Shown one piece after another: positions 46,481 to 64,000 of a DNA stretch of 64,000 nt (the first letter of the stretch is position 1; the number at the start of each line of letters is the position of its first letter). The position numbers and the translations under genes were made by a program. A model generated the notes under the pieces. That model ran no database searches, was not told the origin of the DNA, and saw only the letters and a program-made list of their open reading frames with translations. Location of the stretch: NCBI GenBank assembly GCA_016124235.1, contig WGOC01000022.1, forward strand, positions 157,923-221,922, given 5' to 3'. This stretch comes from a bacterium. Lineage in GTDB: Bacteria > Verrucomicrobiota > Verrucomicrobiia > Limisphaerales > RI-55.

Positions 46481-46663
46481 TCAGTTTGCCGCTTTGGCGT
46501 GAATAGGCACGTCCGCTCGCACCGGCGCCGGTGGTTGTGAAGGCGGCGGCGGCTGTGGCGGGGGCGGCGGCGGCCTGCTCCCAACGGGTGGAGGATTGTT
46601 TACGCCGCCTTTCTTAATCAGCCCTTCATTGGCCGCCATCATCGTTCTCGGTTTCTCGCTCAT
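46481..46663 (-). CDS. possible small proline-rich protein (60 aa)
   Basis: ...NNPPPVGSRPPPPPPQPPPPSQPPAPV... It overlaps the end of the upstream gene by 38 nt and ends just before the bidirectional terminator. Coding status is uncertain. Confidence 0.3.
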   Translation of the reverse strand: MSEKPRTMMAANEGLIKKGGVNNPPPVGSRPPPPPPQPPPPSQPPAPVRADVPIHAKAAN

Positions 46664-47351: not shown

Positions 47352-47445
47352 TCCCGCTTTGTAACGTGCGCGGCGATTTTCGTCTATCCGAATCAACTAG
47401 GTCTTGAAGCATTTCGATTCGATCAGCACACTATTCCTATAGGAA

Positions 47446-48252
47446 ATGGAATTCGTCAGAGCTATTCCGTTTGAAGAAGCGGTCGCCAAACTGGGTGATC
47501 GTTCGGTTATTGGTTCGTGGCTGAAGTCCACCGAGTGGGCTGGTGTGCCAGTGGCGTTGCGCGATCGTGCCTATTTCTCCGCCACGGTCGAAAGTGTGCG
47601 CGTGCTGCAGCGTGGCCGCGATATGATCAACGATTTCCTCACCGGCGTGCGTGAGATCCTGCCGAATGGCGAAGTGGCGTTGAAGGCGGGTAGTCGTCAG
47701 GAGTTCGTGAAGCAGATGCAGAGCTTCATGGAGTCGGAGGGGATGATCCGTAAACACGGCGGCTTGTCCGACGTGGCCAGCCAGCGCCGGCTGGAATTGA
47801 TCTTCGATACGCAGACCAGACAGGCCCAGGAATATGGCACCTGGAAGCAGGGCCAAGACCCCGACGTGCTCGACGAGTTCCCAGCGCAGAGATTTATCCG
47901 CGTGCATTCCGTGAACGAGGCGCGCACTTCACACGCGGCGTTTGAAGGCGCTGTCCGCCTCAAGAGTGATTTGCAGTTCTGGCAATCGATCAATCAGGAT
48001 TTCGGCGTGCCTTGGGGGCCGTGGGGTTGGGGTTGCGGTCACGACGTGGAAGACGTGGACCGTGCCGAAGCCGAGTCGCTCGGCTTGCTGCAACCAGGCG
48101 AACCGGCCCGCCCGGTGGACAAGTCGTTCAACGATCAGCTGAAGGCATCAACGTGCGGCATTGATCCAGATCTGCAGGGCGTGCTGAAGAAACAGTTTGG
48201 CGAGCAGATCCAGAGCGAAGGGGACGCGGTGAATTGGAGGGGGCAGGAATGA
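47446..48252 (+). CDS. phage Mu F-like / SPP1 gp7-family head morphogenesis protein homologue
   Basis: IPFEEAVAKL N-terminus, RRLELIFDTQTRQAQEYGTW (compare R.ELIARTE...A.N.G), and RFIRVHSVNEARTSHAAFEGAVRLKSDLQFW (compare D.RTR..H..L.G......D.FW). Recognised from memory of the family motifs. Confidence 0.6.
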   Translation: MEFVRAIPFEEAVAKLGDRSVIGSWLKSTEWAGVPVALRDRAYFSATVESVRVLQRGRDMINDFLTGVREILPNGEVALKAGSRQEFVKQMQSFMESEGMIRKHGGLSDVASQRRLELIFDTQTRQAQEYGTWKQGQDPDVLDEFPAQRFIRVHSVNEARTSHAAFEGAVRLKSDLQFWQSINQDFGVPWGPWGWGCGHDVEDVDRAEAESLGLLQPGEPARPVDKSFNDQLKASTCGIDPDLQGVLKKQFGEQIQSEGDAVNWRGQE

Positions 48253-48575
48253 CGTTGCGCGATATTCTCCGAGGCCGATTGGTGGGCAAGTATGACGATG
48301 CCGAAACTGTTCGGCGCCTGGTCGGCATCGGCCTCACCGAACTGGAAGCCAAACGTTGGTTGATTGACCAGGATGCAGGCTTCGGGCCTGACGTATTTAG
48401 CGAAGACGACAATGACCGTCAACGGCGGACGATAATGACTGATCGCATGATGGCCGCCATTCCCGACGAGGTGGCTATCGACCGCTTGCAATCGACCGGC
48501 CTCACTGAGGCTGAAGCGCGGCGGTGGCTCCAAAACCAGGATGAACTATTCCTGCCGGATTTGGTAATTGATTAG
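48249..48575 (+). CDS. hypothetical protein with internal repeat GLTE(L/A)EA(K/R)RWL.(D/N)QD
   Basis: The ATG at 48249 overlaps the MuF-like stop (ATGA). There are two copies of an ~18-aa motif (GLTELEAKRWLIDQDAGF / GLTEAEARRWLQNQDELF). Confidence 0.5.
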   Translation: MTLRDILRGRLVGKYDDAETVRRLVGIGLTELEAKRWLIDQDAGFGPDVFSEDDNDRQRRTIMTDRMMAAIPDEVAIDRLQSTGLTEAEARRWLQNQDELFLPDLVID

Positions 48576-48586
48576 GGGGTAGTTGT

Positions 48587-49207
48587 ATGTCTCGCACAAA
48601 GCCGAAAGATCTCACTATTTTTGGGGTGACGAAGCGACTGGATGAAATCGTAGCGCTCAGACACGATCTGATAGCGTATTTCAACGATCTTAATCGGTCG
48701 CAGTCCTATATGTCTGCCCCGAGCGAGGGAGAAAAAGCGAGGGCGGTAAGACCAGAGATTAACCGAAGGCTTGATTCTGTTGTCGAATATATCGAGGCCG
48801 CGGGTGTACCGTGCGTTCTATATCATTCGCCAGCGCCGGCAATCGGTGGATTTGCAGGCAATATCCATGTCCTCCATAATATCTTTAATTGGCATCAGCT
48901 CGATATTCGGCCAGTTCAAATTCTCGACATCTTTGAGAGAGCGATAGGTGTCTATCAAGCTCAGGTTGGACCTGCAAAAGTGCGGACATTTAATCCGATT
49001 TTTTGGCTGCTTCGCTTCTTACGAGCGATTAGCTCGTTACCGTTCTCACTGCTCGATAATGTCGGCCTTGGTGGACACAAGCTGGAAGAGAGTTTCGTCG
49101 GTAAATTGATCAAGTTGTTGACTGAACTTATTACATTGGCTTGTTCGGCGTACGGTTTTCTCAAATTAATTGGCCGCGAAGATATGATTCGAAAGTTTTT
49201 TGAGTGA
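48587..49207 (+). CDS. hypothetical protein (206 aa) with hydrophobic C-terminal region
   Basis: AT-richer ORF. The C-terminal FNPIFWLLRFLRAISSLPFSLL and LIKLLTELITLACSAYGFLKLI segments suggest membrane association. No family recognised. Confidence 0.55.
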   Translation: MSRTKPKDLTIFGVTKRLDEIVALRHDLIAYFNDLNRSQSYMSAPSEGEKARAVRPEINRRLDSVVEYIEAAGVPCVLYHSPAPAIGGFAGNIHVLHNIFNWHQLDIRPVQILDIFERAIGVYQAQVGPAKVRTFNPIFWLLRFLRAISSLPFSLLDNVGLGGHKLEESFVGKLIKLLTELITLACSAYGFLKLIGREDMIRKFFE

Positions 49208-49280
49208 GCGGCGCAGAGCGGCGAAATGCCGCCTACTGACTCTCTTGTCCGGCGGCTGATTTGTGAGATTCTGTGGGCCG

Positions 49281-49457
49281 ATGAAACTCGAAAATCCATT
49301 CTTTATAATCTTGGCGGCGCTCCTGGCGGCGTGGGCGATCATCGAACTTATCAATGACAGCTCCCGCGCAATAGAATGCCGTTACCGTAAGAGCAAGGCC
49401 CGGCCGAAAGGGTTGGTCGGTTACAAACAGGTCGCTCCAGAGCCGGTCCTTGGCTGA
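49281..49457 (+). CDS. possible small single-pass membrane protein (58 aa)
   Basis: MKLENPFFIILAALLAAWAIIELI followed by a basic segment (positive-inside). It competes with an antisense 81-aa ORF. Confidence 0.3.
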   Translation: MKLENPFFIILAALLAAWAIIELINDSSRAIECRYRKSKARPKGLVGYKQVAPEPVLG

Positions 49458-49585
49458 GTCGCTGCCGGTATCTGGCAATGCGGCTGCCGGAGATGTGCTG
49501 CGACGCCTGTCGCGACGTCTAACCGGTTAATTCAGGACGCATCACTTATGATTAGACGAAGTGATTGAAAGTTGTCCGATGTCCC

Positions 49586-49619
49586 ATCTGTGCGGTCTAT
49601 TTTTCAATTTGTTCCAAAA
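49586..49619 (+). repeat. right-end inner copy of the bipartite repeat (same orientation as the left end)
   Basis: ATCTGTGCGG (49586-49595), N14, then TGTTCCAAAA (49610-49619). Confidence 0.8.
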
Positions 49620-49666
49620 CTCCGAGCGACCGGCACTGAAGGCCCGCCGTTATTGAGTATTCTACG

Positions 49667-49700
49667 TTTGGAACAGTCGGACATCAGTCCGCACAGATCG
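49667..49700 (-). repeat. right-end outer copy of the bipartite repeat (inverted relative to the left end)
   Basis: TTTGGAACA (49667-49675), N13, then CCGCACAGATCG (49689-49700). Reverse complement is CGATCTGTGCGG-N13-TGTTCCAAA. Confidence 0.8.
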
Positions 49701-49853
49701 CCTGCAGCGGCGTTTTTCGGCCAAGCTCGATTCAGGGGGCGTTTAGGCTCGTAAGTGCCTCACACTCGGAAAGTTCCAAGCTGGTTTAGTCTTGTTCACC
49801 CTAAAATGTGCGAGCGTACAACTCGGTCGCGAACATTCAAACGGGGAAAGAAA

Positions 49854-49928
49854 TGGTGCGCGATACAGGGTTCGAACCTGTGACCCCCACCGTGTCAAGG
49901 TGATGCTCTACCACTGAGCTAACCGCGC
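49854..49928 (-). tRNA. tRNA-Val (anticodon GAC), CCA encoded
   Basis: The reverse complement folds as a canonical cloverleaf: acceptor GCGCGGT/ATCGCGC, D-arm GCTC-AGTGGTA-GAGC, anticodon arm TCACC-TTGACAC-GGTGG, variable loop GGGTC, T-arm ACAGG-TTCGAAC-CCTGT, then A-CCA. 75 nt. Confidence 0.93.
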
Positions 49929-50006: not shown

Positions 50007-53000
50007 TCACGCCGCCTCGACGGCTGCCTGCTCCAACACGCGATTGAGCGTGCGGGCAGCGGATGGCAGCACAGTCGCGAGGTACTCGAGTCGTTCGCCG
50101 ACGGCCTGGACGCCTTCGGCAGCGCCATAGTTTACCAAGCGCCGATACCAGTTGAGAAATTCCTGGCTGGTTTCGGCTTCGTTTTCCGGCGGGCCGTCGA
50201 TGCTGAACTCGCCCTGCATCAATTCGCAGAACAGGCGAGCACTCAGCGCGCGCGGCTGACCATTGAGTTGGCGCCAAAAGGGCAGGGCGTCCGCGTATTG
50301 TTGAGTGAGCAAAAGCGTTTCACCTCGGGCGGCGATCAAGTCACGATTCGTCGGATGATGCTTGATGGCCTCGGCGGTCCAGTCGCGAGCGAACTCGATG
50401 AAGTCGGGTTGGCTCAACGCCACGCGGGCGCCGTGAACCCAAGCTTCAACGAACTGCGTGTTTTCCGTGACCAGGCCGTGGAACAATTTCAGCGCTTCGA
50501 CCGGGTCGCCGTGTTTTGTCGCAAACCGGGCGGCATCCATGCGCAGGGGCGCAAGCTTGGGATCTTCCTGGATGGCGGAGGCAAATTCACCAGTGGCGTC
50601 CTCGATTGCTCCGGATTGCCAAAGTGCCAGCGCGAGGCAATGACGCGGGGCGCCGCTATGGATTACCTGATTGACCAGGTAGAATGACGGTTCGTTGCGA
50701 GTGGCGATGCAGGCACGGAAGGCCGCCACCGCTTCGGTCCATTGGTGAAGCTCCTGGTGGGCGAGACCGAGCGTGAATTGCAAGGAAGCCGTCAGCTTGC
50801 CGGCCCGGGCAACTCGCGACGAAAGCACGGCGACGATGTCGGACCAGCGATTCACCTTCATCAAATGCGAGGTGTATTGCGTGAGCAACGATTCACGCAA
50901 CTCGGGTGTCACTTCATTGACCGGCTTTCCATCGAGAGCGGCGAACGCTTCAGCGTAGCGTTTCAACCCTTCGTCAAATCGTTCAGAACGAATCAGCTCG
51001 AGCCCGTAGTTCATCAACAGGTTCGGATCGCCCGGGATTTCGTCGATTGTCATTTCAAGCAAACGCAGATTGCGGATGACTTTGTTCCGGTCTTTGACGA
51101 CCTCCGCGGTGTAGCCGTGGTGAATGAGTTTCACATCGGCCACGGCTGTTTCCATGTTCCATTCTTCGCGACGGACTTCGACGCTGCTGAACACCTGTTC
51201 GTGAACACGGCTCACGTAAAACAATCCGGGCGCATTGCGGAACAACCTCGCGACAAACGTGCGGCCTTCGGCTTCATGGCCGACGTCGATGATAGGCAGA
51301 CGCCAGCCGATCGTGTTGGGCGTTTGCATCGCTATCCGGAGAGCGGCCTTGCTGTCGGGCGCAAGTTCTTCGTCAGCGTCGAGCACGAGCACCCAGTCGC
51401 CGGTGGCTTTCTCAAGGGCGGCATTGCGGGCCGCGCTAAAGTCATCACACCACGTGACCGAATGAACTTCCGCGCCGTGCTGTTTGGCGATGTCGACTGT
51501 TCGATCGGTCGAACCGGTATCCATCACGACGATTTGCTGCGCAATGTCTTTGATCGAGCGCAGGCATTGATCCAGGAACTTCTCCTCGTTTTTGGTGATG
51601 AGACAAACGCTGAGCTGTGGTTCGCGAGTTGGGGGCAGCGGAGAAAATTCGGTTTTGGTTTTCGCCGGACGTAGCTTGTGCGTTTTGGCGAACTTACGAG
51701 CCGTTTTCCAATTCGGCGTGAGCGACAGTGCTCGATCAACGCATTCCTTCATCCGCGTGGCATCACCGCTTTGGCAGGCGATTTCGGCGAGCAGCAAACA
51801 GGCTTCAGGATGGAACGGGCGTTGAGCGATCGCGTCGAGATTCGCGTTCCAAGCGGCGACCAGTTTGCCTTGTTTGAACAATTCGCGGGCGGCACCCAGG
51901 TGACCGAGTTTGGCGACGGCGGGCAGCTTGATCGCGATTGGTTTGTGCGACTTTTGTTCTGAGGGCTTGGGTGTTTCTTCTGCCGACGGGACGTCGGCAG
52001 CACGTTGCTGCACCAGTTCGGCGATGCGATTGGCGGTGTGATTCCAAGTCCAATTTTCGCGGACATGGGCGCTGGCGGCGTTTCCGCGGGCGCGCGCTTC
52101 TTCGCGATGTTCGACGACGTGGCGAATCAGCTTCTTGAGCGCGTCAACATTCGGTTCCAGCAACCAGCCATCACCGGCCAACGGCATCCCGCTGATTTCG
52201 CGACCGAACACCTGCCGCGTTGATGGAATACGATAACCAATTTCCGCCGGCACAAAATCATCGGTTGCACCACCGGCCGTGACGATTACCGGCAGACCGC
52301 AGGCCATTGCTTCGAGAACCGGCAGGCCGAAACCTTCACCGCGATACGGATGCACGAGGCAATTGCATGCTTTGTAGAGTCCGGGCAGATCGCGCGCCGG
52401 AAGTTCGTTCGTCAGATAAAGAATCTCCGGTGTGTTGGGCTGCTTTTGGATTTCGCGAATCTGTTGGTCGATCGTCTGGCCAGCGTAAACGGAAGCGCCG
52501 CCAAAATCCTTGATAACCAGACAAACGTCATCTTTTGCCGTGAATGTCTCGCAGTAGGCCTTGAGTAGAACGTCGGGGCCTTTTCGGTGGATCGTTCCGC
52601 CGACAAATAGGAATTTGAACTTCTTCTTCGTCGCCAGTGAGAGCGGTTTGACCTGCGGATGGAAAGCCTTGGGATCGATTCCGTTTGGGACAACATGAAC
52701 TTTTTCCGCCGGCACGCCCGACTCGATGTAAACCTGCCGCACGTAATTCGAGGGAACCCAGAACACGTCCGCGTTCGCGGAGGCATTTACCCAGTCCTTC
52801 GGCAGCGAACCAAATTCCCACGGTTGAATCACCGCGAGCTTGCCCTGGGCCGGCCGTGACCAATCGGGCGGCCATGCGTGGCGCACAGTGAGCGAAGCAT
52901 TCGTGTTCGCCTTGCTCGCAAGTTTACCGCGATACGATTGCAGTGGTTTCGCGAGCTTGCCGGTCACGGGTGTCGTCTGAATCCGTCGAATAGAAGCACC

Positions 53001-56000
53001 GTTTTGAATGACCAATGTGTCCGTGAGAACGCGGTTGATGTTCGAAAGACTTCCGTAATCGAGAAACGAACCGTGCCAGTTGATTTCAAAGCGGGTCGTC
53101 TGCTTGACGGCTGGTTGAGCGTTTTGACTGGGTGCCGGTTGTTTGGCAATGGCCTTTTGGAATGTCTTTCTGAATTCGTCGAACGAGCGAACCAGCGTGA
53201 TGTCGCTCCACGGATCGATGAACACAAAGTCGGAGGCATCCTTCTTTCCGGTCCAATCCGCGCCGCGGAGCGAATCAAAGACAATGGTGGGAATGCCGCG
53301 GAGTGCCGCAAACGTTTTGCCCCACGAATCAGCGCCAACGAAGACTTTGCTGGACGCGATCCATTCCATTTGTTCGCGGAACGAATAGCTGCGTTGGTCG
53401 ACGGCGCCTGAAATGGCGGGATAAAGCGTCGCTTCATCGGGCGTGCCCAAGATCACTGGAGTCAGTCCGGCGTCGAGGATCAATCGTTGCAAAGCGGGCC
53501 ATGTCGCGGGATCGAGTTGGTTGCGCTTCGAACCGACCATGCCCGTGAGACTGCCTTTCGGCGAGAGCGTGACGCACGCCGGAGAATCAGTTCGTTGAAA
53601 CTCGCGCGCCCATTTCGGGTGTTCGGTGACCTTACGCTGGCGATAGATGTCGAACGTCGGATTCCACTCGGAGTATTCCTGATAGGGCGTCACTCCCACG
53701 CCGCGACAGGTCCTCACCAGTTTCATCAACATGCGGACGAGTAAATGATGATGCGGGTCCGGATGTTCGGGCAGGAAGTAGACGTTTTTGAGTTTCGGGA
53801 ACGCGTCGAAAAAGCTCTTCATGGCCTCGTTCGAATTGGCCATGCTCACGATGACGGATTCCGGGTGACGATCGTAGAAAGTCGACAGCAGCAACAAGCC
53901 GTCGCCCGCACCTCCGCAATGGAAATAAAACGGACCGATGCGTTCCAGGTAGCCGGCCAGCATTTCCGCGAGCTTCGCGAAGTGATTTCCGTTTTGCAGT
54001 TCCTTGGTGACGACGGGGAACAGTTCTTTCACGAGTTCGAGGTAGCGACCGTCTTTTTCCCCGGTAAGAATAGAATCTACGAAGGCATTCCAATTGGTGG
54101 GTGTCGCTGAATCCATGCCCAGGAGCAACTTCTGATACTCGCGAGCCTTTTCTGTCTCGTGACGACACAAGCTTTCGCGCGTCATCTGGCGGACGGCGGG
54201 CGGGTCCAAAATGACACCGTCGATTGACGTGTAACGCGGATCGCCGTGGATGACCGTGCTGTGTGAATTGAAACGAATCGAGATTCCAGCGGCGTGCAAA
54301 CGACGGGAGAAATCCGCGTCCTCGCCCTGATAGAAGCCAAGGCTGTCGCTCCAGCGCACGCGATCCCCCACCGCCGCCTTCATCACACACAAGCCGCCCG
54401 TGACGTAGACGTGCGGATCGGTTTCGTCGTAAGGCAACAATTTGTGGCCGCGCGGTCCGGCGTTGGTCGCCCAATCCCAGTAACGTGTTCCGTCGGGGTT
54501 GAGCAGCCGCACACACAACACTTCAAAGTCATCGCCAAACTGTTGGAGGCCTCGGAAGAAATCGGATTGGAAAATCAGATCATCGTCGGCGACAACCAGA
54601 TGATCGAATCGGGCGCGATCGAGGAGGCGATTACGCATCTCACCTAAACGGCCGTTTCGCGCGGCGTCGACGGCAGGAACAAACTCGATGTCGTCAAAAC
54701 CTTCCGACGCTTCGCCGCCGATCAGAATTTCGCAATTGGGAATGTTCAATGACTGCACACTCTCGATGGCCCGCCGGAGTTTCTCTGGGCGCTTCCCGTT
54801 GGTGATGAAACAGAACGACCAGCCCGACTCACGAACGCGCGGTTTGAGATCACTGTGTTCGATCAATTTGCCGCGCAGGATCTTCAGGCGACCGGCGAAT
54901 TCGTGATCACCATTCCGCGTGGTTTTGCCAATTTGCAGATCAATCAGACCAAAGAAAATTCGGTCCAATCTGGCTTTGTGGGCACGGGCGAACTCGGATT
55001 TGCTCGCACAATCCAAGGCGGCTTCCAGCGCAACACCAGCTTCGCGGACGGCCTCTGCGGAAAGGGGTTCACGTAAATCGAGCAAATGAGTGAGCTGGTC
55101 ACTGAGTTGTAGATCGTTCGGCGAGCTCAATGCGTTCACTGACGCGACTTGTTCGGGCTTGCGGGCGAAGAAACGGATTTCTTCGCCCTGTCCGTTTTGG
55201 GCGAGTTGATCGACGAGTTGTTGATGGCTCGCGTCGTTCCGCAGCGATGCGTCCACGCGGTCGGCGACCTCGCGGTGCATACGCATGCCGTAATCACCGA
55301 GCGCGGTGTAAATTCGTTCCACCACAAAGCCCGCCGCTTCGAGATGTCGACGCAATGTCTCGGGTGTATAGTGGACGTAATGATAATTCGGATCGAGCCA
55401 GTACCAACGATCGCCCGCGTGTCGCGAACAATAGGACGCGAAGTTCGGAACAATGCCGCAGAATAGACCTCCCGGTTGCAGCGTGAGGAAAACTTTGGCG
55501 ATCGCTTCACGCGGTTGCGGCAGATGCTCGAGCACATGCAGCATGGTTATGACTTGGTGCGAATTCTCTTCGTAAGGCGTGTCCAGGAACTGTGTGTTGA
55601 CGACGGGAATCTGCAGTTCGTCGTTGGCGTAATGAACCGCCTTGCGGGTCAACTCCATGCCCGCCGGTTGGAATCCGTGGTCGCGCGCATTCAAAAGAAA
55701 CGCGCCCCAGCCACAACCGATGTCGAGAATGCGTCCGCGCTTCTGGTTGATCCCCAGAATTTCCTGGAAGAAATAGTCCCGCTTCAAACAGCTCGCCGCG
55801 GCCGCATCTTTGGACTTGGGCAGAGCCATGTGGGAACCATCATCCGCGTAGGTTTGATAGAGCTTCTCCATCTGCTCCGTCGTCATCCGCGTGCGGAGAT
55901 AAACCGTCTGGCAATCGGAGCACTGGACAATGTCCGCCGCATGGCGAACGCGATCGGCGCGCCGCGAGGCGCAAAATGGACAACCAACACTCTCCGTCGT

Positions 56001-59000
56001 CGGCTGAGCTGGACGCACCTGAAGAGGCGGCGTAACGGGAACTGGTTGGGCTGCCGGTACCGGTGATTTGCTCTCCTGCCGCCATTGTTGCAAAAGCGTG
56101 TTCTCAGAATCGGCGTTTGCCACTTCGTCGAAGAGCAATTCGGCGGTAGTCGTAGTGCCCAGCTTCCAATAGCAAAACGCAACTTGCGCGCGCGTGGCAG
56201 TGTCCTTGGGTTGTCTGGTGAGAATCGACTGGCAGTGCTTTAGCGCGTCCTCCCAACGGGATTGTTCCATCAAAATGACACCGAGCAATCGTTGGGCGTC
56301 TTCGTTGTGCGGTTCCAATCGCAACACTTCGCGGGCATTGCGTTCGGCCTTCGCCAGCGGATCATTTTCGTCCTGGCCTGTGAGGTCGTTGAGACATTCG
56401 CGAGCGAGCTGGTTTTGCGGATCGAGTTGCAGGATCTTGCGGAACACTTCGATGGCCGTTTCGCCTTCGCCACCGCCGAGCAAACATTTGGCGAGGAGCA
56501 GCAGCGTTTCAACATCGTTGGCGTTCAGTTCGAGGACGCGGTAACAGACCTTCGCGCCGTCGAGCCATTGCTGCCGTTGAATGTGCAAAGCAGCTAGCAA
56601 CCGCAACGCATCCACACCGTTGGGATTGATCGAGAGCGCTTCACGAATGACGGATTCGAGATTGCTCGGCGACTCTTGGGTTGTCGGATTTTGCGGCGCG
56701 ATCGGCTGAGTTTGTTTCGGCGATTGCGAATTGTATTTTTCAGACGCCGCAATTCCGTTCCGTGAAACTGCGATGGATTCGCGGAAGAAGCGGCGATGCT
56801 CTTCGGCCATGCAGCGCCAATCAAACTGAGTTACGGCTGCCCGTGCGTTTCGCCCGAGCGCCACTCTCAGTGCCGGTTCATCTCTCAGCTCGATAACGGC
56901 CTGCATGAACGCCGGCAGTTGCCGGGATACGATAAGCGCGCTCTCGCGGTGCTTTAAGTATTCGGGGACCGCGCCGCAATCCGTCGTGATGATGGCACGC
57001 TCCATCGCCGCTGCCTCCATCACGGAATTGTTGTTCCCTTCAAAGTCGGACGCGCAGATGTAGGCGTCGATCGAATCGTAAAATTCTCGCATCTGGTCCA
57101 CAGCGAGATTCCTGTCGCTGTAGCCGCAGAAAACCAATTCAACACCGGGAAGTTTGCTCAAAGGCGCGATAAATTGTTCGAAGCCCTTGCCGGGAGATTT
57201 GCGGTTGCCCGCCCAACCGAGTCGTAGTTTTCCGGTTGGCGAAACGGCGGACCGGGTTCGCGGTCGAAAGCGTTCCAGGTCGACTCCGTGGGTCAAGTGA
57301 AGCGTGGTTGGAACAAACGGTGCAAACAGCTCCGCGAGTCGTTTAGAAACGACGTGGACGCGCTGAAATCGTGTTTTCAGGCGCTCGGCGAAGAGGAGAA
57401 AATCTTCGTCTTTCCACGAGAGATGGGAACGGATACCGGTCACCCATTTCGCGGGCGTTCGAATTGCTTCGTCTGGAATCAGGTTCCATTCGAGTGGATA
57501 GATCAGATCAAAATTGTCCTCGTAGATCGACTGTCCCTGGTAGGCAATCGAGAACTCAAACTCGTCAGCGAGCAGGAGTTTAAGCACCTTGCAATGACGT
57601 TCGAAAATCCAGTTTGGAACGTCGGCTATGAGTAGGATGCGCGGTTTCCGACCTGGCGGCGAAAATGATCGTTGAATCTGCGTTTCGTCAGCACGCAGTC
57701 GAGACGTCGAAAATGAGGGAGTCATTGGTTGGCAGTTGGCTGAGGGACAATTCTCAAGGACGAAAATCGGCTGAACGTAATTGCGATCCGGTCCGGCACC
57801 TACCGTGTCGTGATCGAAGAGAGATTCATCAAATCCGTAGGCGGCAAGCAGTCGCCACCCTGCGAGCAATTTCGGAAGGCGGTGCCGGCCGTAGATGCGA
57901 TGGGCATTCCATACAACAACGTCGCTGCCGACGGGAACCGCCAGAAACAGTATGCCTCCGGGCCGAAGCATGCTTCGAACTTTCTGCATTGCTGCTACGT
58001 CGCCATCTGGATTGAGCGGATCGCCATAGCGGCCCAGGCCATCATGTTCGAAACTGGATATGGAAAACGCCACATCGAATAACCTGGGGGCGGCCTCAAA
58101 TTCGGAGGGCGTCAATGTCGTGATACCCGGATGATCGGTTACGATCCGGCGATATTCGACCGTCGTACAACGCCCTCCGTTTTCGAGAATCAGGGCTTCG
58201 TACCACGGAAGCTCCGATCCAATGACCACAACATCTTTGCCGCGAATACTGAAGCGATCCAGAGCTTGATAGAGCCAGAGATTGGTGGGGCCGTAGCTTC
58301 CTGCCTCGCGCCGTGAGATCCGTTGCCGAAGGTCTTCAACGAGTGTGCGAGGGTAGCGAAGAGGTTGTTCGGGCGGTGTCGCCTCGTTCAAGTACCATTC
58401 CTCAACTCTGGCCCTGCCCGACATGGTGTAAGCCTCCGTCATCGTCGCGGGAATTTTCTGTGGTGGAGTTCCGGGGACAACACTCGCCGCTTGTTGAGAT
58501 GCCGTATTCACCGCGCCTGATCGACGCGCAACGTACACAATTTTGGGTATTTCCTGTGTCTCCTGAAAGATCGACTCGATGGTCAAGCCACTGCGGGAGA
58601 AAATTTGTTCGATTTCGGCGCGCGAGTGCCGCACGCGATATTCGGACGGGCGCTTTTCTGCGACGGGTTTGCTGCGATCCTGCGTGCAATACTGGTTGTC
58701 CGGAAAGTCGTTGTAGGCGGCGTCGATGACGTCCAGTACGATGATGCCACCAACTTCCAAATGTGGAAGGTATCGGTCGAGGAAGTCATCCAGCGAAAAT
58801 CCTTCTATCAAGTGGGTCCAGTTGAGCGCCTCGATCAGGCCGAATGCCATTTCGGGCAAATGGTGAGGGCTCAAACCGTCGTCCTGCCAAAACTGTATCG
58901 GGAAGCCGGTTTTGGTGGCGATTTCAGTTCCCGCCGCAACTGTTCGGGGGTCGATATCGCATCCATAGAGTTCCGTAAAGCCATGTTCCGCCAGCCAGAA

Positions 59001-60206
59001 CAGGTTGAAACCGACTCCGCAACCTAATGACAGGACCGGGGTTTCCGTCGACAAATGCTCTGCGGCCCACACACAAGGTTTCCAAGTATCCCAGCGACTG
59101 CCGCGCTCTCGAAATATGTAGTGGAACCATCCGGGAACACCATGCCGATCGAGAACCGATTCCACCAATTCTCGCGAGATCCGAAGTTCGGGATTGAGGG
59201 TTTGACTGCGGAGCGAAGGGACCATGCTTTGCTCGGTGCACTTTTTTGTTTGAGCCGGCGGACTGACTTCGTTGAGGAAGTGACTGTGATATTCCGCCAT
59301 TGTGCATGGTTGCGCTCCGACTCTTCGAGCAAACGCGAATACCTGTTTCAACATGTCTGTGAACCGGGAAACATCCGTCTTGCTTTGCGGATAAGGGGAT
59401 GCACCCGCGACGAGTTCAACGTTGTGAAACATCATTACCAGCGGGCGGCGATGACCGTCGCGCGCGGGTTGGGCAGAAACCTGGCGCACGATTTCGCAGA
59501 GGGTGTCGGCATTGGAATACCAAGGGCGAAACCAAACAGGTTCGCCAGCGGGCGCGGAGGAAACGGTCCCGGCGGGGAGAATCGTTACTGGCAGTTCGAC
59601 GAATTGCGATTTTCCGGGCAACGCGATGTTTCCATCGGGGCCCACCCTGTAGGGAAACTCGGAAAACGAGCGATAGTCCGGTTGTTTTGCTCCGCGACGG
59701 CTCGTCCAACAGATGTGAGGTGTAACGGACGAGTCAATCAAGTAACCAAGCTCCCTCAAAATCCGGCAGGTATGGGAACTTGCACCGAAGCGACCAGCAC
59801 GGAAACTGAGCGGTTGATAGCCGAATTGTTGCCGAAATAATTCAGTCAATGTCGCGAGTTTTGCGTGCTCGATCTCGGGCCCGTACTCCCATTGCATCTC
59901 ATCCGTCAACGTGCCGGCGAAGTCCCATGTTTTTGGACGAGGTGCGACATAGTCTCCGTGCAGGTGCGTAGTCAATTCGACGTCTCTCAACGATCGAAGC
60001 ACGTCAACACAATCCGGATTCAGGAGAATTTCGGGGCTCAGCAAGTAGGTCGGACGTATGCCGAATTCTGCAAACAACGGTTGAAGCAAGTTAGGGATGG
60101 CATCTGTTACGGCCCGGAAGGAGAGAGGAGAAGCCGTCCGCCACGATGCGCTCTTGTCGCATTCCGTGTCGATCGTGACGAGGAGACGGAGTTCTTGATC
60201 TTTCAT
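50007..60206 (-). CDS. giant multidomain glycan-modifying enzyme (3399 aa): deacetylase-like + 3 methyltransferase + 5 glycosyltransferase modules + TPR regions
   Basis: Approximate domain map, aa (nt):
- 1-310 polysaccharide-deacetylase-like, LLVTIDTECD (59277-60206).
- 385-540 SAM MTase, LSLGCGVGF (58587-59054).
- 640-820 DUF268-type MTase, FSISSFEHDGLGRYGDPLNPDGD (57747-58289).
- 853-1145 GT4, GWAGNRKSPGKG...EGNNNSVMEAAA (56772-57650).
- 1185-1370 TPR.
- 1408-1640 zinc-ribbon CPFC..CSDC + SAM MTase, ILDIGCGWG (55287-55985).
- 1795-1990 GT2-like, VVADDD (54237-54824).
- 2090-2350 GT9-like, FVGADSWGKTFAALRGIPTIVF (53157-53939).
- 2440-2740 GT4, RGEGFGLPVLEAMACGLPVI (51987-52889).
- 2863-3040 GT2, SVCLITKNEE...LDADEEL (51087-51620).
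- 3040-3399 TPR-like.
It is a single uninterrupted ORF. Confidence 0.9.
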   Translation of the reverse strand: MKDQELRLLVTIDTECDKSASWRTASPLSFRAVTDAIPNLLQPLFAEFGIRPTYLLSPEILLNPDCVDVLRSLRDVELTTHLHGDYVAPRPKTWDFAGTLTDEMQWEYGPEIEHAKLATLTELFRQQFGYQPLSFRAGRFGASSHTCRILRELGYLIDSSVTPHICWTSRRGAKQPDYRSFSEFPYRVGPDGNIALPGKSQFVELPVTILPAGTVSSAPAGEPVWFRPWYSNADTLCEIVRQVSAQPARDGHRRPLVMMFHNVELVAGASPYPQSKTDVSRFTDMLKQVFAFARRVGAQPCTMAEYHSHFLNEVSPPAQTKKCTEQSMVPSLRSQTLNPELRISRELVESVLDRHGVPGWFHYIFRERGSRWDTWKPCVWAAEHLSTETPVLSLGCGVGFNLFWLAEHGFTELYGCDIDPRTVAAGTEIATKTGFPIQFWQDDGLSPHHLPEMAFGLIEALNWTHLIEGFSLDDFLDRYLPHLEVGGIIVLDVIDAAYNDFPDNQYCTQDRSKPVAEKRPSEYRVRHSRAEIEQIFSRSGLTIESIFQETQEIPKIVYVARRSGAVNTASQQAASVVPGTPPQKIPATMTEAYTMSGRARVEEWYLNEATPPEQPLRYPRTLVEDLRQRISRREAGSYGPTNLWLYQALDRFSIRGKDVVVIGSELPWYEALILENGGRCTTVEYRRIVTDHPGITTLTPSEFEAAPRLFDVAFSISSFEHDGLGRYGDPLNPDGDVAAMQKVRSMLRPGGILFLAVPVGSDVVVWNAHRIYGRHRLPKLLAGWRLLAAYGFDESLFDHDTVGAGPDRNYVQPIFVLENCPSANCQPMTPSFSTSRLRADETQIQRSFSPPGRKPRILLIADVPNWIFERHCKVLKLLLADEFEFSIAYQGQSIYEDNFDLIYPLEWNLIPDEAIRTPAKWVTGIRSHLSWKDEDFLLFAERLKTRFQRVHVVSKRLAELFAPFVPTTLHLTHGVDLERFRPRTRSAVSPTGKLRLGWAGNRKSPGKGFEQFIAPLSKLPGVELVFCGYSDRNLAVDQMREFYDSIDAYICASDFEGNNNSVMEAAAMERAIITTDCGAVPEYLKHRESALIVSRQLPAFMQAVIELRDEPALRVALGRNARAAVTQFDWRCMAEEHRRFFRESIAVSRNGIAASEKYNSQSPKQTQPIAPQNPTTQESPSNLESVIREALSINPNGVDALRLLAALHIQRQQWLDGAKVCYRVLELNANDVETLLLLAKCLLGGGEGETAIEVFRKILQLDPQNQLARECLNDLTGQDENDPLAKAERNAREVLRLEPHNEDAQRLLGVILMEQSRWEDALKHCQSILTRQPKDTATRAQVAFCYWKLGTTTTAELLFDEVANADSENTLLQQWRQESKSPVPAAQPVPVTPPLQVRPAQPTTESVGCPFCASRRADRVRHAADIVQCSDCQTVYLRTRMTTEQMEKLYQTYADDGSHMALPKSKDAAAASCLKRDYFFQEILGINQKRGRILDIGCGWGAFLLNARDHGFQPAGMELTRKAVHYANDELQIPVVNTQFLDTPYEENSHQVITMLHVLEHLPQPREAIAKVFLTLQPGGLFCGIVPNFASYCSRHAGDRWYWLDPNYHYVHYTPETLRRHLEAAGFVVERIYTALGDYGMRMHREVADRVDASLRNDASHQQLVDQLAQNGQGEEIRFFARKPEQVASVNALSSPNDLQLSDQLTHLLDLREPLSAEAVREAGVALEAALDCASKSEFARAHKARLDRIFFGLIDLQIGKTTRNGDHEFAGRLKILRGKLIEHSDLKPRVRESGWSFCFITNGKRPEKLRRAIESVQSLNIPNCEILIGGEASEGFDDIEFVPAVDAARNGRLGEMRNRLLDRARFDHLVVADDDLIFQSDFFRGLQQFGDDFEVLCVRLLNPDGTRYWDWATNAGPRGHKLLPYDETDPHVYVTGGLCVMKAAVGDRVRWSDSLGFYQGEDADFSRRLHAAGISIRFNSHSTVIHGDPRYTSIDGVILDPPAVRQMTRESLCRHETEKAREYQKLLLGMDSATPTNWNAFVDSILTGEKDGRYLELVKELFPVVTKELQNGNHFAKLAEMLAGYLERIGPFYFHCGGAGDGLLLLSTFYDRHPESVIVSMANSNEAMKSFFDAFPKLKNVYFLPEHPDPHHHLLVRMLMKLVRTCRGVGVTPYQEYSEWNPTFDIYRQRKVTEHPKWAREFQRTDSPACVTLSPKGSLTGMVGSKRNQLDPATWPALQRLILDAGLTPVILGTPDEATLYPAISGAVDQRSYSFREQMEWIASSKVFVGADSWGKTFAALRGIPTIVFDSLRGADWTGKKDASDFVFIDPWSDITLVRSFDEFRKTFQKAIAKQPAPSQNAQPAVKQTTRFEINWHGSFLDYGSLSNINRVLTDTLVIQNGASIRRIQTTPVTGKLAKPLQSYRGKLASKANTNASLTVRHAWPPDWSRPAQGKLAVIQPWEFGSLPKDWVNASANADVFWVPSNYVRQVYIESGVPAEKVHVVPNGIDPKAFHPQVKPLSLATKKKFKFLFVGGTIHRKGPDVLLKAYCETFTAKDDVCLVIKDFGGASVYAGQTIDQQIREIQKQPNTPEILYLTNELPARDLPGLYKACNCLVHPYRGEGFGLPVLEAMACGLPVIVTAGGATDDFVPAEIGYRIPSTRQVFGREISGMPLAGDGWLLEPNVDALKKLIRHVVEHREEARARGNAASAHVRENWTWNHTANRIAELVQQRAADVPSAEETPKPSEQKSHKPIAIKLPAVAKLGHLGAARELFKQGKLVAAWNANLDAIAQRPFHPEACLLLAEIACQSGDATRMKECVDRALSLTPNWKTARKFAKTHKLRPAKTKTEFSPLPPTREPQLSVCLITKNEEKFLDQCLRSIKDIAQQIVVMDTGSTDRTVDIAKQHGAEVHSVTWCDDFSAARNAALEKATGDWVLVLDADEELAPDSKAALRIAMQTPNTIGWRLPIIDVGHEAEGRTFVARLFRNAPGLFYVSRVHEQVFSSVEVRREEWNMETAVADVKLIHHGYTAEVVKDRNKVIRNLRLLEMTIDEIPGDPNLLMNYGLELIRSERFDEGLKRYAEAFAALDGKPVNEVTPELRESLLTQYTSHLMKVNRWSDIVAVLSSRVARAGKLTASLQFTLGLAHQELHQWTEAVAAFRACIATRNEPSFYLVNQVIHSGAPRHCLALALWQSGAIEDATGEFASAIQEDPKLAPLRMDAARFATKHGDPVEALKLFHGLVTENTQFVEAWVHGARVALSQPDFIEFARDWTAEAIKHHPTNRDLIAARGETLLLTQQYADALPFWRQLNGQPRALSARLFCELMQGEFSIDGPPENEAETSQEFLNWYRRLVNYGAAEGVQAVGERLEYLATVLPSAARTLNRVLEQAAVEAA

Positions 60207-63200
60207 GGCATTGTGAGAGCGGTTTGGCTTGGAGTTGGGAGCCGGTTGCTGCGGCGGTGACTTCCGTCCACGAAATATCGATTCACGAACTTTATTGCTG
60301 AGTCAGGAATCTTGTCTGATGTGTCGCCAGCCAGGGCACAAGCGAGTCCATTACGAGTAAACCAATCGACCATCGCATTACGCAACAAACGCCAGTTCTC
60401 TTGAAACCGCCCGTAGTCGGGTGGAATGCCACGTAGTTCGTGGACCAGTGTCTCATCGTCGTAACGGGCAATATGGTGATAAGTCAGCCCCATCATATCG
60501 CAAAACGAACTTACCCGGGTGTCCGTGCCTATGAGCAACGTTGGTCTGCCGTAGCTGAGCGAAACCATCCCGAAATGCAGCCGGAAACCGGCCGTTCGCG
60601 AGGCCGAAACCGCAGCCGAAACCATTGCGTCGTGCCGGTAATTTTCGTCATGAACCCAGCTCAGACCAAACTCATTCCTGAGCTCGTCAGCGATGGGCAA
60701 ATCGTATGGACTCTGCAAAACCAAAGTCGGGCGGAATTCCCGGCAAAGACGGTTCAACGTGACGCGAGCCTTGTCGTTCCAAGACTCGTTAACATGCAAC
60801 AACCGCGCCCGGATCGAAAGGTGCAACCGCGATGTGTCCGCCGTTTGAAACTTTGGCTCTCGCAGGGCGTGGAACAACACAGGGCAGCCCGTTAGTTCCA
60901 CATTACGAATACCCAGTCCTCTGACGAATTCGAGCGAGAGCGGATCACGCACACTGCCCCCGTGACAGCGTTCGTGCAAAAGGCGGACAGCCTTTATTCC
61001 GTCGGCGTCCATGACTGGCATGTGACCGACCGCCGCGCTGCCACCGACCCCCAAGGGGAGGATCGGTATCTGAATTCGCCGGATAATTGCGGAGGTCAAT
61101 GCGCAGGCAAAGACGTGCTGATACAGATTCGTGCCGCAAAGAATCGCGGCATCGCAGGCATTGATCTCCTCGACTTGCGCGTCAGACAGCGGTTGCAACA
61201 AGGGAAACTCCCGGGTGTCAGCGTTGCCAAGAAGTCGTCGGATGGAATCCACGATCAACGCGTCGCCGGAATTATCCCCGTTAACCGCGGCGCTGAGGAG
61301 TGCGATTCTCTTCCGAATGCTGTCAGTCAATTGGGGATTGACCGTGTGGACGCATTCAACGCGCTCCGACTGGAACTCGAGCACGTAAAGGAACTCGTCT
61401 TTCCCGAGATCCACTTTCTTCAAGAGCTTTCCAGCTATATTTTTTAAGATCGTTTCAAGTTCGGCCACGCTAAGGGAGCTCTGCCAGTGTTGGCGTGTTC
61501 GCCGTGCCGGATCCGAGCAATCATTGTAGGAAAGTACCAGATATTGGGTGTGCCGCGCCGCCCATTCCAGCAATCGCCTGACGTCAGAAAAATATTCAAC
61601 CAAGCCCAGCATTGTGGCGACGGTGTAACTGTCGTCCGGAAGCGATGTGTTCAAATCCAGCGTGATCACATCGGGTCGTCGGGCGACGCGATCCACGGGG
61701 ACATACTCAAGGGAAGCCGGAACGAGGGCTCGTAAAGTTTGATGTCCACATCCCAGATCGATGAGTCGACCTTGTGCCGGCAGATCCAGATCGCGAATCA
61801 ATTGTGCTGCCGCCTCGGCCCGTGAGGGCCACTCCAAAAGATTCTCACCAAGGTTGCGGTCCCAAAGAATTTTTCGTTCGGCCTCCGCGTCAACGGAGGA
61901 ATCGTGGGGAGCGTTCTGAACCGATGCGTTTTGAGAGACTCCGGTTTGCTTGTTCAGCGCCTCACGAAAAGCTTTTCTCCAGGAATTCGCAACCACATCC
62001 CAACTCCGGGTGGAAAGAGCCTCCCGGGCATTGGCTTGACCAATCTTGCGTATTCGTTCGGTATTTAAAGCGCACCATTGAAACGCCGCACGAAATGCTG
62101 CGACGGATCGCTCCACGACCAGACCATTGACCTTGTGTTGCACCAACTCCGGGACGATCCCGACGTCTACCGCCACCGGAAAGCACCCACAAGCAAGGCC
62201 TTCGACGAGCGTCAAGGGCTCTCCTTCAGCCGTGGACGCAACGCAGAGAACATCGACAGAATTGTAAAAGTTCCGCATCTGCGCCTGGGTAAGTTTCCCG
62301 CCTGCGATATTGAGTTCGAAATCAGTTCCAGCGGAGGGGCGCAATATGTCCGCAACGCCCTTGCAGGAATCCTTTTCATTGCCCGCCCATCCGATTCGTA
62401 GGGGACCCGATCGATGGGCATCGCAACGAAAGTCGCCTGTGTCGAATCCATTTGGCGTCAGCATTACCGGCCGCACTTCGGAAAAGATAGACTGTAGGCG
62501 CTTGGACGTGGCTGTTAGTGTACCGGCGTCAGTCAGGTATCGTTTGGCTGCCTCGGGAGCTGTGAGCCGCCCATAAAAGTCTTCATTCGCCCATCGATGG
62601 GAGCTGATTTCTTTAATTACTTTTCGCGGGTCTTTGACGTAGGCTTGGTGATAGCTTTCGCCCCAGAAGAACACGTGGATCAGATCGAATGGCCATGAAT
62701 TCAGGTCGGGGCTTTCGCACACGTAGAAAATCCGGAACTCGAATTCATCGCACAAACGAGTCGCAATGGCCTTGGCCGCCGTGTCGTAAGCCCAGTTGGG
62801 ACGATCAACCAGCAACAGCACCCGCGGTTTCCGACGTCCGGGAGCTTTTTGTGACAACGATATCGGTTCCAGTTCCGGAGTCGACTTCAAGTCGGGTATT
62901 GTTTTATTCCCAGCCGAGGATTCGTTACGCCGTGATCTTTGAGCTGCTATGTGAGGTGCGATCGTGCTTGCCAATTTTTCCCACCATCGTTTGGTGGTAT
63001 AGTCGGCCATCACGCGCTTCCAACCCGCTGCTGCGATCCGCCGCCGTTCGTCCGGGTGGGTGAGATAGTAGCACGTCTTTTCCACGCATTCTTCAATGGA
63101 GTCAAAACCCACCACCTCCCGGTCGAGATCAAAAATTTTTGCGAGATTGGATTTGTTGTCACAAATCTGCATAACGCCATAGGCGGGCAACGTGAACAAC

Positions 63201-63958
63201 CTGCTGTTACACGGCCCGACGGAGTTGTGCAGGTTCCAACCGATTTGTGCCCTTGGGTAGACATTGTCTGCGGCGATGGGTCCCTCCGGCCATCCCGGCC
63301 CTCGAATAAACGCTTGAGGAAACTCGAGCGACAGGCGCTCCAGACGCTGGGCCCGATCACTCAAGTTGAACACCCGCTCGCAGAGCATCACGATCTCAAG
63401 GTCGCGCCCCGCTCCAGACAGCACTTTTTCTTCGGTCAGCGTTGGGTCGCATAACTCGGCGCGAACCGGTGGGAAGAGCCAGTTCACGTGTCGGCAGCCC
63501 CAGCGACGGTAGTCATCCAGGCAGGCGATGTTGGTGGGAAAACAGAAATCAAAACTGGGAGCGACAGGCCGCGACAGAATGTCGGAGCTTTCGGGATCAT
63601 CTGCACAAATAAACACATTGTAGGTGGACAATGATTTGATGAAATCGGGGTGCAACATCGTGCCACCGGAAGCGATCAGGACGTCCTTCGTGGTCAGTCG
63701 GTCGGCCAGTGCCTCATACTGAGGAAGAAGATCCGGAGACTGGTCCCGCCATTTTGCATCCAATTTTGGGAAAGGCCACCAACCTCCATCGCAAAAGATG
63801 GGTATGGCCTCGACATTGTATTCCAAGCTTCGTGCGTTTGCCGCAAAAGCCTCTTCCTCTGCCACTCGGTTCGAAGAATAGGCGGGGTATACTATCGCGT
63901 ATCGAAGTAATTCCAGAGATCGGTGCAACGGCGGGAGCTTATCTGATTGCGATGCCAT
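60203..63958 (-). CDS. multidomain glycan-modifying enzyme (1251 aa): CgeB-like GT + GT4 + SAM methyltransferase + polysaccharide pyruvyl transferase
   Basis: Domains by aa: 1-335 CgeB/DUF3880-like (FDSIEECVEKTCYYLTHPDERRRIAAAGWKRVMADYT). 375-665 GT4 (GWAGNEKDSCKG...EGEPLTLVEGLACGCFPV). 700-860 SAM MTase (RLIDLGCGHQ). 880-1210 pyruvyl-transferase-like (GDNSGDALIVDS...ILCGTNLY). The stop overlaps the ATG of the 3399-aa gene (ATGA at 60203-60206). Confidence 0.88.
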   Translation of the reverse strand: MASQSDKLPPLHRSLELLRYAIVYPAYSSNRVAEEEAFAANARSLEYNVEAIPIFCDGGWWPFPKLDAKWRDQSPDLLPQYEALADRLTTKDVLIASGGTMLHPDFIKSLSTYNVFICADDPESSDILSRPVAPSFDFCFPTNIACLDDYRRWGCRHVNWLFPPVRAELCDPTLTEEKVLSGAGRDLEIVMLCERVFNLSDRAQRLERLSLEFPQAFIRGPGWPEGPIAADNVYPRAQIGWNLHNSVGPCNSRLFTLPAYGVMQICDNKSNLAKIFDLDREVVGFDSIEECVEKTCYYLTHPDERRRIAAAGWKRVMADYTTKRWWEKLASTIAPHIAAQRSRRNESSAGNKTIPDLKSTPELEPISLSQKAPGRRKPRVLLLVDRPNWAYDTAAKAIATRLCDEFEFRIFYVCESPDLNSWPFDLIHVFFWGESYHQAYVKDPRKVIKEISSHRWANEDFYGRLTAPEAAKRYLTDAGTLTATSKRLQSIFSEVRPVMLTPNGFDTGDFRCDAHRSGPLRIGWAGNEKDSCKGVADILRPSAGTDFELNIAGGKLTQAQMRNFYNSVDVLCVASTAEGEPLTLVEGLACGCFPVAVDVGIVPELVQHKVNGLVVERSVAAFRAAFQWCALNTERIRKIGQANAREALSTRSWDVVANSWRKAFREALNKQTGVSQNASVQNAPHDSSVDAEAERKILWDRNLGENLLEWPSRAEAAAQLIRDLDLPAQGRLIDLGCGHQTLRALVPASLEYVPVDRVARRPDVITLDLNTSLPDDSYTVATMLGLVEYFSDVRRLLEWAARHTQYLVLSYNDCSDPARRTRQHWQSSLSVAELETILKNIAGKLLKKVDLGKDEFLYVLEFQSERVECVHTVNPQLTDSIRKRIALLSAAVNGDNSGDALIVDSIRRLLGNADTREFPLLQPLSDAQVEEINACDAAILCGTNLYQHVFACALTSAIIRRIQIPILPLGVGGSAAVGHMPVMDADGIKAVRLLHERCHGGSVRDPLSLEFVRGLGIRNVELTGCPVLFHALREPKFQTADTSRLHLSIRARLLHVNESWNDKARVTLNRLCREFRPTLVLQSPYDLPIADELRNEFGLSWVHDENYRHDAMVSAAVSASRTAGFRLHFGMVSLSYGRPTLLIGTDTRVSSFCDMMGLTYHHIARYDDETLVHELRGIPPDYGRFQENWRLLRNAMVDWFTRNGLACALAGDTSDKIPDSAIKFVNRYFVDGSHRRSNRLPTPSQTALTMP

Positions 63959-64000
63959 TTGAAGTCTGTGAGCTGACGCAACGGCATTGTCGCCTCGAAC

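Follow-up and report, generated by a model that had tools for sequence, protein, structure and literature searches.

The 64,000-nt stretch of DNA analysed here (the window) covers positions 157,923 to 221,922 of contig WGOC01000022.1 in the assembly GCA_016124235.1, assigned to the Verrucomicrobiota (Limisphaerales, RI-55), and carries a single giant gene, a minus-strand open reading frame (ORF) of 3399 codons with an ATG start (50007..60206), whose product combines nine catalytic modules with blocks of tetratricopeptide repeats (TPRs). The uninterrupted 10.2-kb frame, described by an original prediction made from the sequence alone, is borne out by our check of the ORF and by its base composition. 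At the local GC content of ~57%, ~3.6% of the codons of a random frame would be stops, and by our own arithmetic the chance probability of 3399 open codons is ~1e-55. Since the GC content at the three codon positions is ~0.62/0.44/0.65 in every 340-codon block, the whole length of the ORF looks coding; this uniform composition gives no signal of horizontal transfer within it.

A frame of this size could, in principle, be an assembly chimera, or the product of missed frameshifts or stop codons that join several real genes. At one related locus (L011) the same modules are indeed spread over four or five consecutive ORFs, so splitting, whether real or from sequencing error, does occur in the giant family. 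For the gene studied here, however, such an origin is hardly credible. The Logan assembly of SRR10063242 (contig L001), produced by a second assembler, shows 0 mismatches to the window over 14,407 nt and encodes the identical 3399-residue protein, and no DNA repeats >30 nt that could cause a collapse are present between 49.9 and 64 kb. A protein search of NCBI, ENA, JGI and Logan sources further revealed giant homologues in 29 further clusters (1955-5101 residues), and there are ~30 independent full-length giants from these sources (collinear homologues of 2700-3470 residues) and >60 representatives of at least 2000 residues. Because the independent assembly is identical, long repeats are missing and the homologues are collinear, the giant gene is real and not an assembly artefact.

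Pfam was run on the whole protein (36 families, the best 25 shown) and on ten segments. All nine catalytic modules are supported, seven of them by Pfam and two by predicted fold only, and they lie, together with the TPR blocks, where the original prediction had placed them (Table 1). Seven Pro/Gln/Ser-rich linkers separate the modules, and the catalytic motifs (motif I of the S-adenosylmethionine (SAM)-dependent methyltransferases, EX7E, DDD/ED and DADE) are invariant or nearly so in 20 homologues. The first methyltransferase is matched by Methyltransf_25 at residues ~390-545 (E = 8e-9) and has its motif I at G395-x-G397-x-G399, the DUF268 match spans residues 657-792 (E = 2.9e-32), and the invariant residues of module 6 include D1874-D-D1876 and E1962-D1963. 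The eukaryotic flavour initially ascribed to the DUF268 module is a mere matter of the Pfam name, which refers to Caenorhabditis; bacterial homologues carry the same module. In the full-length protein (375 kDa), no transmembrane segment was found (maximum Kyte-Doolittle 19-residue hydropathy of 1.73). No Maf/DUF115 domain is present among the Pfam matches shown for the whole protein and the ten segments (for the TPR segment, among part of its matches), and the same scans contain no carrier (peptidyl or acyl carrier protein), condensation or ketosynthase domains. A Pfam match to GT4-conflict reflects ordinary GT4 similarity, and a link to defence was dropped.

Table 1. Modules of the giant protein and other features of the window (GT, glycosyltransferase; HTH, helix-turn-helix)
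Feature	Residues	Coordinates	Strand	Basis or remark
Module 1, NodB/CE4-fold (beta/alpha) barrel, putative sugar N-deacetylase	1-310	59277..60206	-	Predicted fold
Module 2, class I SAM methyltransferase	370-560	58527..59099	-	Methyltransf_25/12/23
Module 3, DUF268-family putative methyltransferase	640-810	57777..58289	-	Pfam; variable cassette site A
Module 4, GT4 (GT-B) glycosyltransferase	860-1150	56757..57629	-	Pfam E = 1e-13; E1056-x7-E1064
TPR block a	1180-1370	56097..56669	-	Pfam TPR_19, E = 2.6e-19
Module 5, CxxC...CxxC zinc ribbon + Methyltransf_23	1420-1640	55287..55949	-	Pfam E = 2e-24; variable cassette site B
Module 6, GT2 (GT-A) glycosyltransferase	1795-2010	54177..54824	-	Pfam E = 1.5e-9
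Module 7, GT-B fold nearest GT9 heptosyltransferases	2047-2340	53187..54068	-	Predicted fold; variable cassette site C
Module 8, GT4 glycosyltransferase	2375-2740	51987..53084	-	Pfam E = 4e-23; E2632 invariant
TPR block b	~2770-2850	51657..51899	-	Pfam
Module 9, GmaR/SunS-type putative polypeptide-directed GT2	2862-3085	50952..51623	-	Pfam E = 9e-23
TPR/helical-repeat block c	3100-3399	50010..50909	-	Pfam TPR; proposed flagellin-docking domain
Partner gene, cut by the window end		60203..64000	-	Last 1251 codons in the window; full 1494 residues in L001
tRNA-Val(GAC) gene		49854-49928	-	78 nt downstream of the giant stop codon
Region beyond tRNA-Val		34458-49800		GC falls to 0.54
HTH protein gene		42376-42885		Within the preceding region
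HTH protein gene		44032-44832		Within the preceding region
DUF1501 and PSCyt1/DUF1549/DUF1553 gene pair		29877-34185		Divergent; 486 and 911 residues
Type IV pilin-like gene		25859-26857
Low-GC patch		16365-21532		GC 0.48-0.52 vs ~0.57 elsewhere; four genes
ABC ATPase and permease-like gene cluster		852-8624		ATPase gene, then four consecutive ORFs

The two modules assigned by fold gave no Pfam match at E <= 1, neither for residues 1-340 (including Polysacc_deac_1, PF01522) nor for residues 2061-2340 (including Glyco_transf_9, PF01075), and because PDB sequence searches with either module likewise found nothing, fold prediction was needed for both. Residues 1-340 were aligned with 37 of the >1000 stand-alone homologues of the N-terminal module, some of which are named 'deacetylase' and one of which, among 120 listed, carries PF01522. 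The resulting AlphaFold2 model (predicted local distance difference test score, pLDDT, of 91.8) has as its top Foldseek matches in the PDB the polysaccharide and peptidoglycan deacetylases 3rxz, HP0310 (3qbu) and ArnD (8t0j), with E = 1e-9 to 5e-8; chitin deacetylases and GH57 barrels score as well. Its invariant residues are D13, E15, D17, H81, H83, R136, R139, D158 and H261, of which D13/D17, H81/H83, R136/R139, D158 and H261 appear in a sequence that would correspond to the five successive NodB motifs, with an atypical HxH spacing.

For the GT9-like module, residues 2021-2340 were aligned with five homologues, and the AlphaFold2 model is of moderate quality (pLDDT 74, predicted template modelling score 0.78), with the two Rossmann domains of a GT-B fold. 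Foldseek places it closest to WaaF (1psw) and WaaC of family GT9 (E = 5e-7 to 2e-5, with 5e-7 for WaaF and 1e-5 for WaaC; template modelling score ~0.46), UDP-GlcNAc 2-epimerases ranking next. Membership of GT9 was also sought by hhalign against a PF01075 protein of a related locus (L063), where the match was too weak to claim it (E = 0.007, probability 5%) and covered solely the C-terminal 'GADSWGKTFAAL' motif region. The earlier labels of 'deacetylase-like' and 'GT9-like' hold, therefore, at the level of fold, a NodB-type fold and a GT-B fold nearest to GT9 structures, and fail at that of the Pfam family models. If the flagellin reading given below is right, the giant would bring these two module families, both unassigned in Pfam, into the known repertoire of glycosylation. 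A stand-alone GT9-like homologue (327 residues) is encoded elsewhere (L068 1-8984, GCA_027347225.1), after a stand-alone GT4 and a 1648-residue TPR-GT2-GT4 protein, with a TPR/B12-binding radical-SAM protein and its SPASM partner upstream, in a different glycosylation cluster that reuses this module.

At its C-terminal end, the giant resembles enzymes that act on polypeptides. When residues 2862-3053 were compared with all PDB sequences by phmmer, the best match was the glycosyltransferase domain of GmaR (22ao; E = 8e-29 over ~190 residues), followed by the peptide S-glycosyltransferases SunS (7msp; E = 8e-20) and ThuS, and the same GT2 domain is matched by TIGR04195 (E = 8e-23). It contains the motifs DTGSTD and D2943-A-D2945-E, the latter aligning with the DADE of GmaR, and D2943-A-D2945 is invariant in the 20 homologues. 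Pfam matches to TPR_2, TPR_14 and TPR_19 lie right after the domain, at residues 3140-3310. Because the antirepressor part of GmaR is without a detectable counterpart in the giant, the module is, as judged by sequence, a relative of the GmaR catalytic module and not a GmaR orthologue. We propose that it acts as the initiating flagellin O-glycosyltransferase. The idea, already voiced in the original prediction, that the TPRs may dock a substrate protein fits both the flagellin context described below and the precedents of GmaR and FlmG.

No flagellar gene is found among the ORFs scanned inside the window; the flagellar context of the giant begins just beyond it. On L001, the gene order is fliW - csrA - flagellin (269 residues) - 1494-residue gene - 3399-residue gene, with the flagellin gene ~0.8 kb past the window end and immediately upstream of the gene pair. 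The ATG of the giant gene overlaps the TGA of its upstream partner (…ACA ATG CCA TGA AAG…), and such an ATGA overlap is the usual signature of translational coupling of the two genes. The partner protein contains Methyltransf_24, Glyco_trans_1_2, GT4, Methyltransf_23 and polysaccharide pyruvyl transferase domains. The flagellin itself is short (D0/D1 only), with 19 Ser/Thr in the 60 residues from 121 to 180.

With [U] standing for the partner gene and [G] for the giant gene, the arrangement fliW-csrA-flagellin-[U]-[G] recurs in the closest relative (GCA_964572835.1), on the contig of the homologue P0009 and at locus L009. Elsewhere, the pair occurs as [U]-[G]-three flagellins-fliD-fliS (L061) or flgG…flgK-flgL-[U]-[G] (L063, L007, L012, L018), with fliS shortly downstream (L060, L005, L010), with fliD upstream (L004, L008), or, in the form of a 5101-residue relative, beside flgK…fliS (L066). 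In all, at least 14 related loci of Verrucomicrobiota have late flagellar genes on the flanks of the pair, and the giant loci found in GTDB species representatives belong almost all to metagenome-assembled genomes of this phylum (Verrucomicrobiales, Limisphaerales). Where the original prediction spoke of O-antigen, exopolysaccharide (EPS) or protein glycosylation, the genes past the window end make flagellin the most likely target and speak against O-antigen and EPS; this could not have been known earlier because the flagellin gene lies outside the window.

The 5101-residue relative (L066 10001-25306, ENA ERZ24794644), a still larger member of the family, combines numerous GT2/GT4 modules with a C-terminal GT4-TPR-GT2-TPR end like that of the giant. 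Its gene is bordered by sugar-nucleotide genes (epimerase/dehydratase, DegT aminotransferase) on one side and by flgK…fliS on the other. Three loci with Verrucomicrobiota-type giants carry other taxonomic labels, namely Candidatus Limnocylindria (L005, DATJII010000059.1) and Akkermansia muciniphila metagenome-assembled genomes (L004, L006). Their fliS/fliD genes are of almost the same type as their counterparts in Verrucomicrobiales (FliS E = 1e-72), and the labels look like binning or naming errors.

Module-by-module BLAST of the giant homologues resolves a common scaffold in the order N-module - methyltransferase a - [site A] - GT4a - TPRa - [site B] - GT2a - [site C] - GT4b - TPRb - GT2b - TPRc, in which three sites take variable cassettes. 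Site A holds DUF268 here and in ~9 relatives, an unassigned insert of ~270 residues in P0013, which carries FkbM (PF05050), or nothing. Site B is occupied by the Zn-ribbon Methyltransf_23 module only here, by Methyltransf_11, a GT2 and ~360 unassigned residues in the closest relative, or again by nothing; no clear counterpart of module 5 is present in any of the 29 homologues, P0009 coming closest with 25% identity and 43 bits. Site C holds the GT9-like module here and in P0009, and a third GT4 in most relatives. Compared with GCA_964572835.1, the flagellin is 94% identical, CsrA 91% and the partner protein 71%, while the giant shows ~54-80% identity per shared module (71% in the best single alignment) and differs at all three sites. 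By this measure, the putative glycosylation machinery evolves faster than its presumed flagellin substrate.

The same modules are found as separate genes in the same order in Chloroflexi, Planctomycetota and one Verrucomicrobiota locus (L013, L015-17, L011), and they also occur as stand-alone proteins. It follows that the giant is a fused operon, and the view that it unites normally separate genes, put forward in the original prediction, is thereby confirmed. The same prediction had called it very unusual in size and module count, which is true when it is compared with characterised enzymes and untrue of the sequence databases. A search of residues 2781-3399 against 1.84 billion cluster representatives (50%-identity clusters) gave 2870 matches at E <= 1e-30. 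Among the best 150 of these 2870, the module lies at the extreme C-terminus in nearly all and the median length is 1845 residues; 124 have at least 1000 residues, 66 at least 2000 and 17 at least 3000, and only 22 are of a size similar to that of GmaR, below 800 residues. Environmental sequence thus abounds in giants with this module at their end, which are absent among characterised enzymes, and no description of giant flagellar-locus glycosyltransferases was found in the searchable literature.

From the observed domain content, conserved catalytic motifs, synteny and cassette variation we infer that the giant and its partner are probably soluble, cytoplasmic, translationally coupled megaenzymes that assemble an O-linked oligosaccharide on the adjacent flagellin and tailor its sugars. 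TPR blocks b and c, which flank the GmaR/SunS-type GT2b, would hold flagellin in the cytoplasm, and GT2b would place the first sugar, possibly an N-acetylhexosamine by analogy with GmaR, on Ser/Thr residues of the S/T-rich central segment. The four other glycosyltransferase modules of the giant (GT4, GT2, GT9-like GT-B and GT4) might then extend the chain with two to three of the partner, ~seven or eight glycosyltransferase modules being available across both proteins. Tailoring of the sugars could be carried out by five methyltransferases (three in the giant and two in the partner), the NodB-fold module and the pyruvyl transferase of the partner. Assembly of the glycan would be complete before flagellin is exported via the flagellar type III system, and fusion to a TPR scaffold would keep every enzyme next to the bound substrate. 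Through the exchange of cassettes at the three insertion sites, the glycan may diversify faster than flagellin.

In a bolder version, the pair would form a true glycan assembly line, in which modules act processively on TPR-held flagellin, the structure of the glycan is dictated by which modules are present and in what order, and evolution, or an engineer, could reprogram it by swapping modules at the three cassette sites. This version, a protein-templated counterpart, for protein glycosylation, of the logic of nonribosomal peptide synthetases (NRPS) and polyketide synthases (PKS), strikes us as rather doubtful.

Several observations weigh against flagellin glycosylation by the gene pair. The solved TPR/antirepressor chain of GmaR (residues 141-637) gave no match at E <= 0.001, solely the 204-residue glycosyltransferase chain being matched. 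No nucleotide-sugar biosynthesis genes lie beside the giant gene in the window, and no report of flagellin glycosylation in Verrucomicrobiota was found in the searchable literature. Cell-wall polysaccharide pathways are the more typical setting of pyruvyl transferases and CE4 enzymes, and an oligosaccharide of ~7-8 residues would lie at the top of the size range known for flagellin glycans. Within 10 kb, flagellar genes are found neither around the distant relative P0030 nor around the clusters of split genes in Planctomycetota and Chloroflexi (L013, L015-17), which hold solely modules of the partner and the N-terminal part of the giant (the N-module, the first methyltransferase and sometimes a GT4). 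A flagellar role is therefore not inherent in the module set, and we limit the flagellin claim to the scaffold family of Verrucomicrobiota.

The split versions of the N-terminal half without flagellar neighbours would also suit megaenzymes that assemble a lipid-linked or cell-wall polysaccharide (EPS, an O-antigen-like chain or a secondary cell-wall polymer), their position among flagellar genes being incidental or a matter of co-regulation. The repertoire of GT4, GT2, CE4-fold, CsaB-like pyruvyl transferase and O-methyltransferase modules is typical of polysaccharide clusters, the best partial NCBIfam matches include PEP-CTERM/EPS glycosyltransferases, and the multi-glycosyltransferase fusions WbdA and WbbB serve ABC-transporter-dependent O-antigen synthesis. 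Nevertheless, we regard polysaccharide synthesis as unlikely: the gene pair has no adjacent initiating phosphoglycosyl transferase, flippase, polymerase or ABC exporter, the only export genes of the window being >29 kb off; flagellar linkage holds in at least three gene arrangements and at least 14 loci; and the solved members of the GT2 group to which the C-terminal module belongs all glycosylate polypeptides. If the substrate is a protein recognised by the TPRs, it might still be another one, such as the hook, FliD, FlgK/L, a pilin or a surface-layer protein. In several loci flgK/flgL or fliD, and not flagellin, is nearest to the pair, the window includes a type IV pilin-like gene, and, to judge from the titles of published reports, TPR-glycosyltransferase fusions also modify pilins and adhesins. 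In the source organism and its three closest syntenic relatives, however, flagellin is immediately upstream of the pair, and the nearest solved homologue, GmaR, modifies flagellin, which renders a different protein substrate quite improbable.

O-glycosylation of flagellin is known from a small number of pathogens, which use small, separate enzymes for it. GmaR, the flagellin O-linked N-acetylglucosamine transferase of Listeria monocytogenes, consists of a GT2 domain followed by TPRs, which its authors propose to recognise flagellin (PMC9638930); it shares with the giant the homologous GT2 domain, the TPR/helical repeats after it and the flagellar gene context. It differs in having 637 residues, one catalytic domain that adds a single GlcNAc, and a MogR antirepressor domain to which no match was found in the giant, where the GT2 forms the C-terminal end of a nine-enzyme chain. 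In Caulobacter crescentus, the TPR domain of FlmG is necessary and sufficient to bind flagellins (PMC7591256). FlmG likewise joins a flagellin-binding TPR domain to a glycosyltransferase domain in the cytoplasm, a likeness of modular logic, but it has 596 residues, an N-terminal TPR domain and a GT-B domain that transfers pseudaminic acid. The type B flagellin modification of Clostridioides difficile builds a short methylated oligosaccharide stepwise with the flagellin-adjacent GT2 enzymes GT1-GT3 (PMC5207246), and its enzyme GT2, which carries a fused methyltransferase domain, sets a precedent on a small scale; its genes, however, are separate, of ordinary size and encode at most two domains each, as opposed to 9 + 5 modules in two polypeptides. 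SunS and ThuS (7msp, 7msk; TIGR04195) belong to the same GT2 subgroup and act directly on polypeptides, but modify a cysteine of small ribosomal peptides and have no flagellar context. Among the ABC-pathway O-antigen glycosyltransferases, WbdA and WbbB combine several fused or scaffolded glycosyltransferase modules, sometimes with methyltransferase or kinase terminators. Unlike the giant, they have two or three modules, use a lipid-linked acceptor, are encoded with ABC exporters and lack a TPR-GT2 module directed at protein. With NRPS and PKS, the resemblance is an analogy only, since the giant is without carrier domains in the Pfam scans and its tether would be the TPR-bound protein.

In the present case, two polypeptides with a TPR scaffold appear to combine nearly a whole flagellin glycosylation pathway by fusion. 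If this is true, the pair would be a natural, compact and modular system for putting defined, tailored oligosaccharides on a cytoplasmic protein, attractive for glycoengineering, and a clear case of surface-glycan diversification via the exchange of domain cassettes. It would also offer a first handle on flagellar glycosylation in the Planctomycetota-Verrucomicrobiota-Chlamydiota (PVC) superphylum, in a family that is large, borne mostly by uncultured Verrucomicrobiota and, as far as the searchable literature goes, without a description.

Downstream of the giant gene, neither a terminator nor a promoter was found between its stop codon and the tRNA-Val gene. The region beyond this tRNA gene encodes two HTH proteins and a DUF6338 protein, together with an operon of 157-, 647-, 801- and 503-residue ORFs on the minus strand. 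It resembles a mobile element that has inserted at the tRNA gene and may include a Tn7/TniB-like transposition module. Among the ORFs of the operon, the 503-residue one alone has a family match (AAA_22, weakly TnsC-like), and it gave the sole PADLOC match, PADLOC having been run on the neighbouring ORFs only; the 801- and 647-residue ORFs had no match in Pfam or PADLOC.

The low-GC patch encodes a LysM-amidase, a beta-barrel porin (BBP2_2), a 738-residue Wzz/GNVR/ParA-type tyrosine-kinase-like chain-length regulator and a Poly_export/SLBB protein. It represents an exopolysaccharide export set that is positionally unrelated to the giant gene and possibly horizontally acquired. Near the start of the window, one ABC ATPase gene and, after it, four consecutive large ORFs for ABC-2-type permease-like proteins (551-651 residues), some of them overlapping, make up an unusual multi-permease cluster of an ABC-2 transporter. 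Finally, the divergent DUF1501 and PSCyt1/DUF1549/DUF1553 genes form a pair that is a hallmark of Planctomycetota and Verrucomicrobiota, and thereby support a PVC origin of the window.

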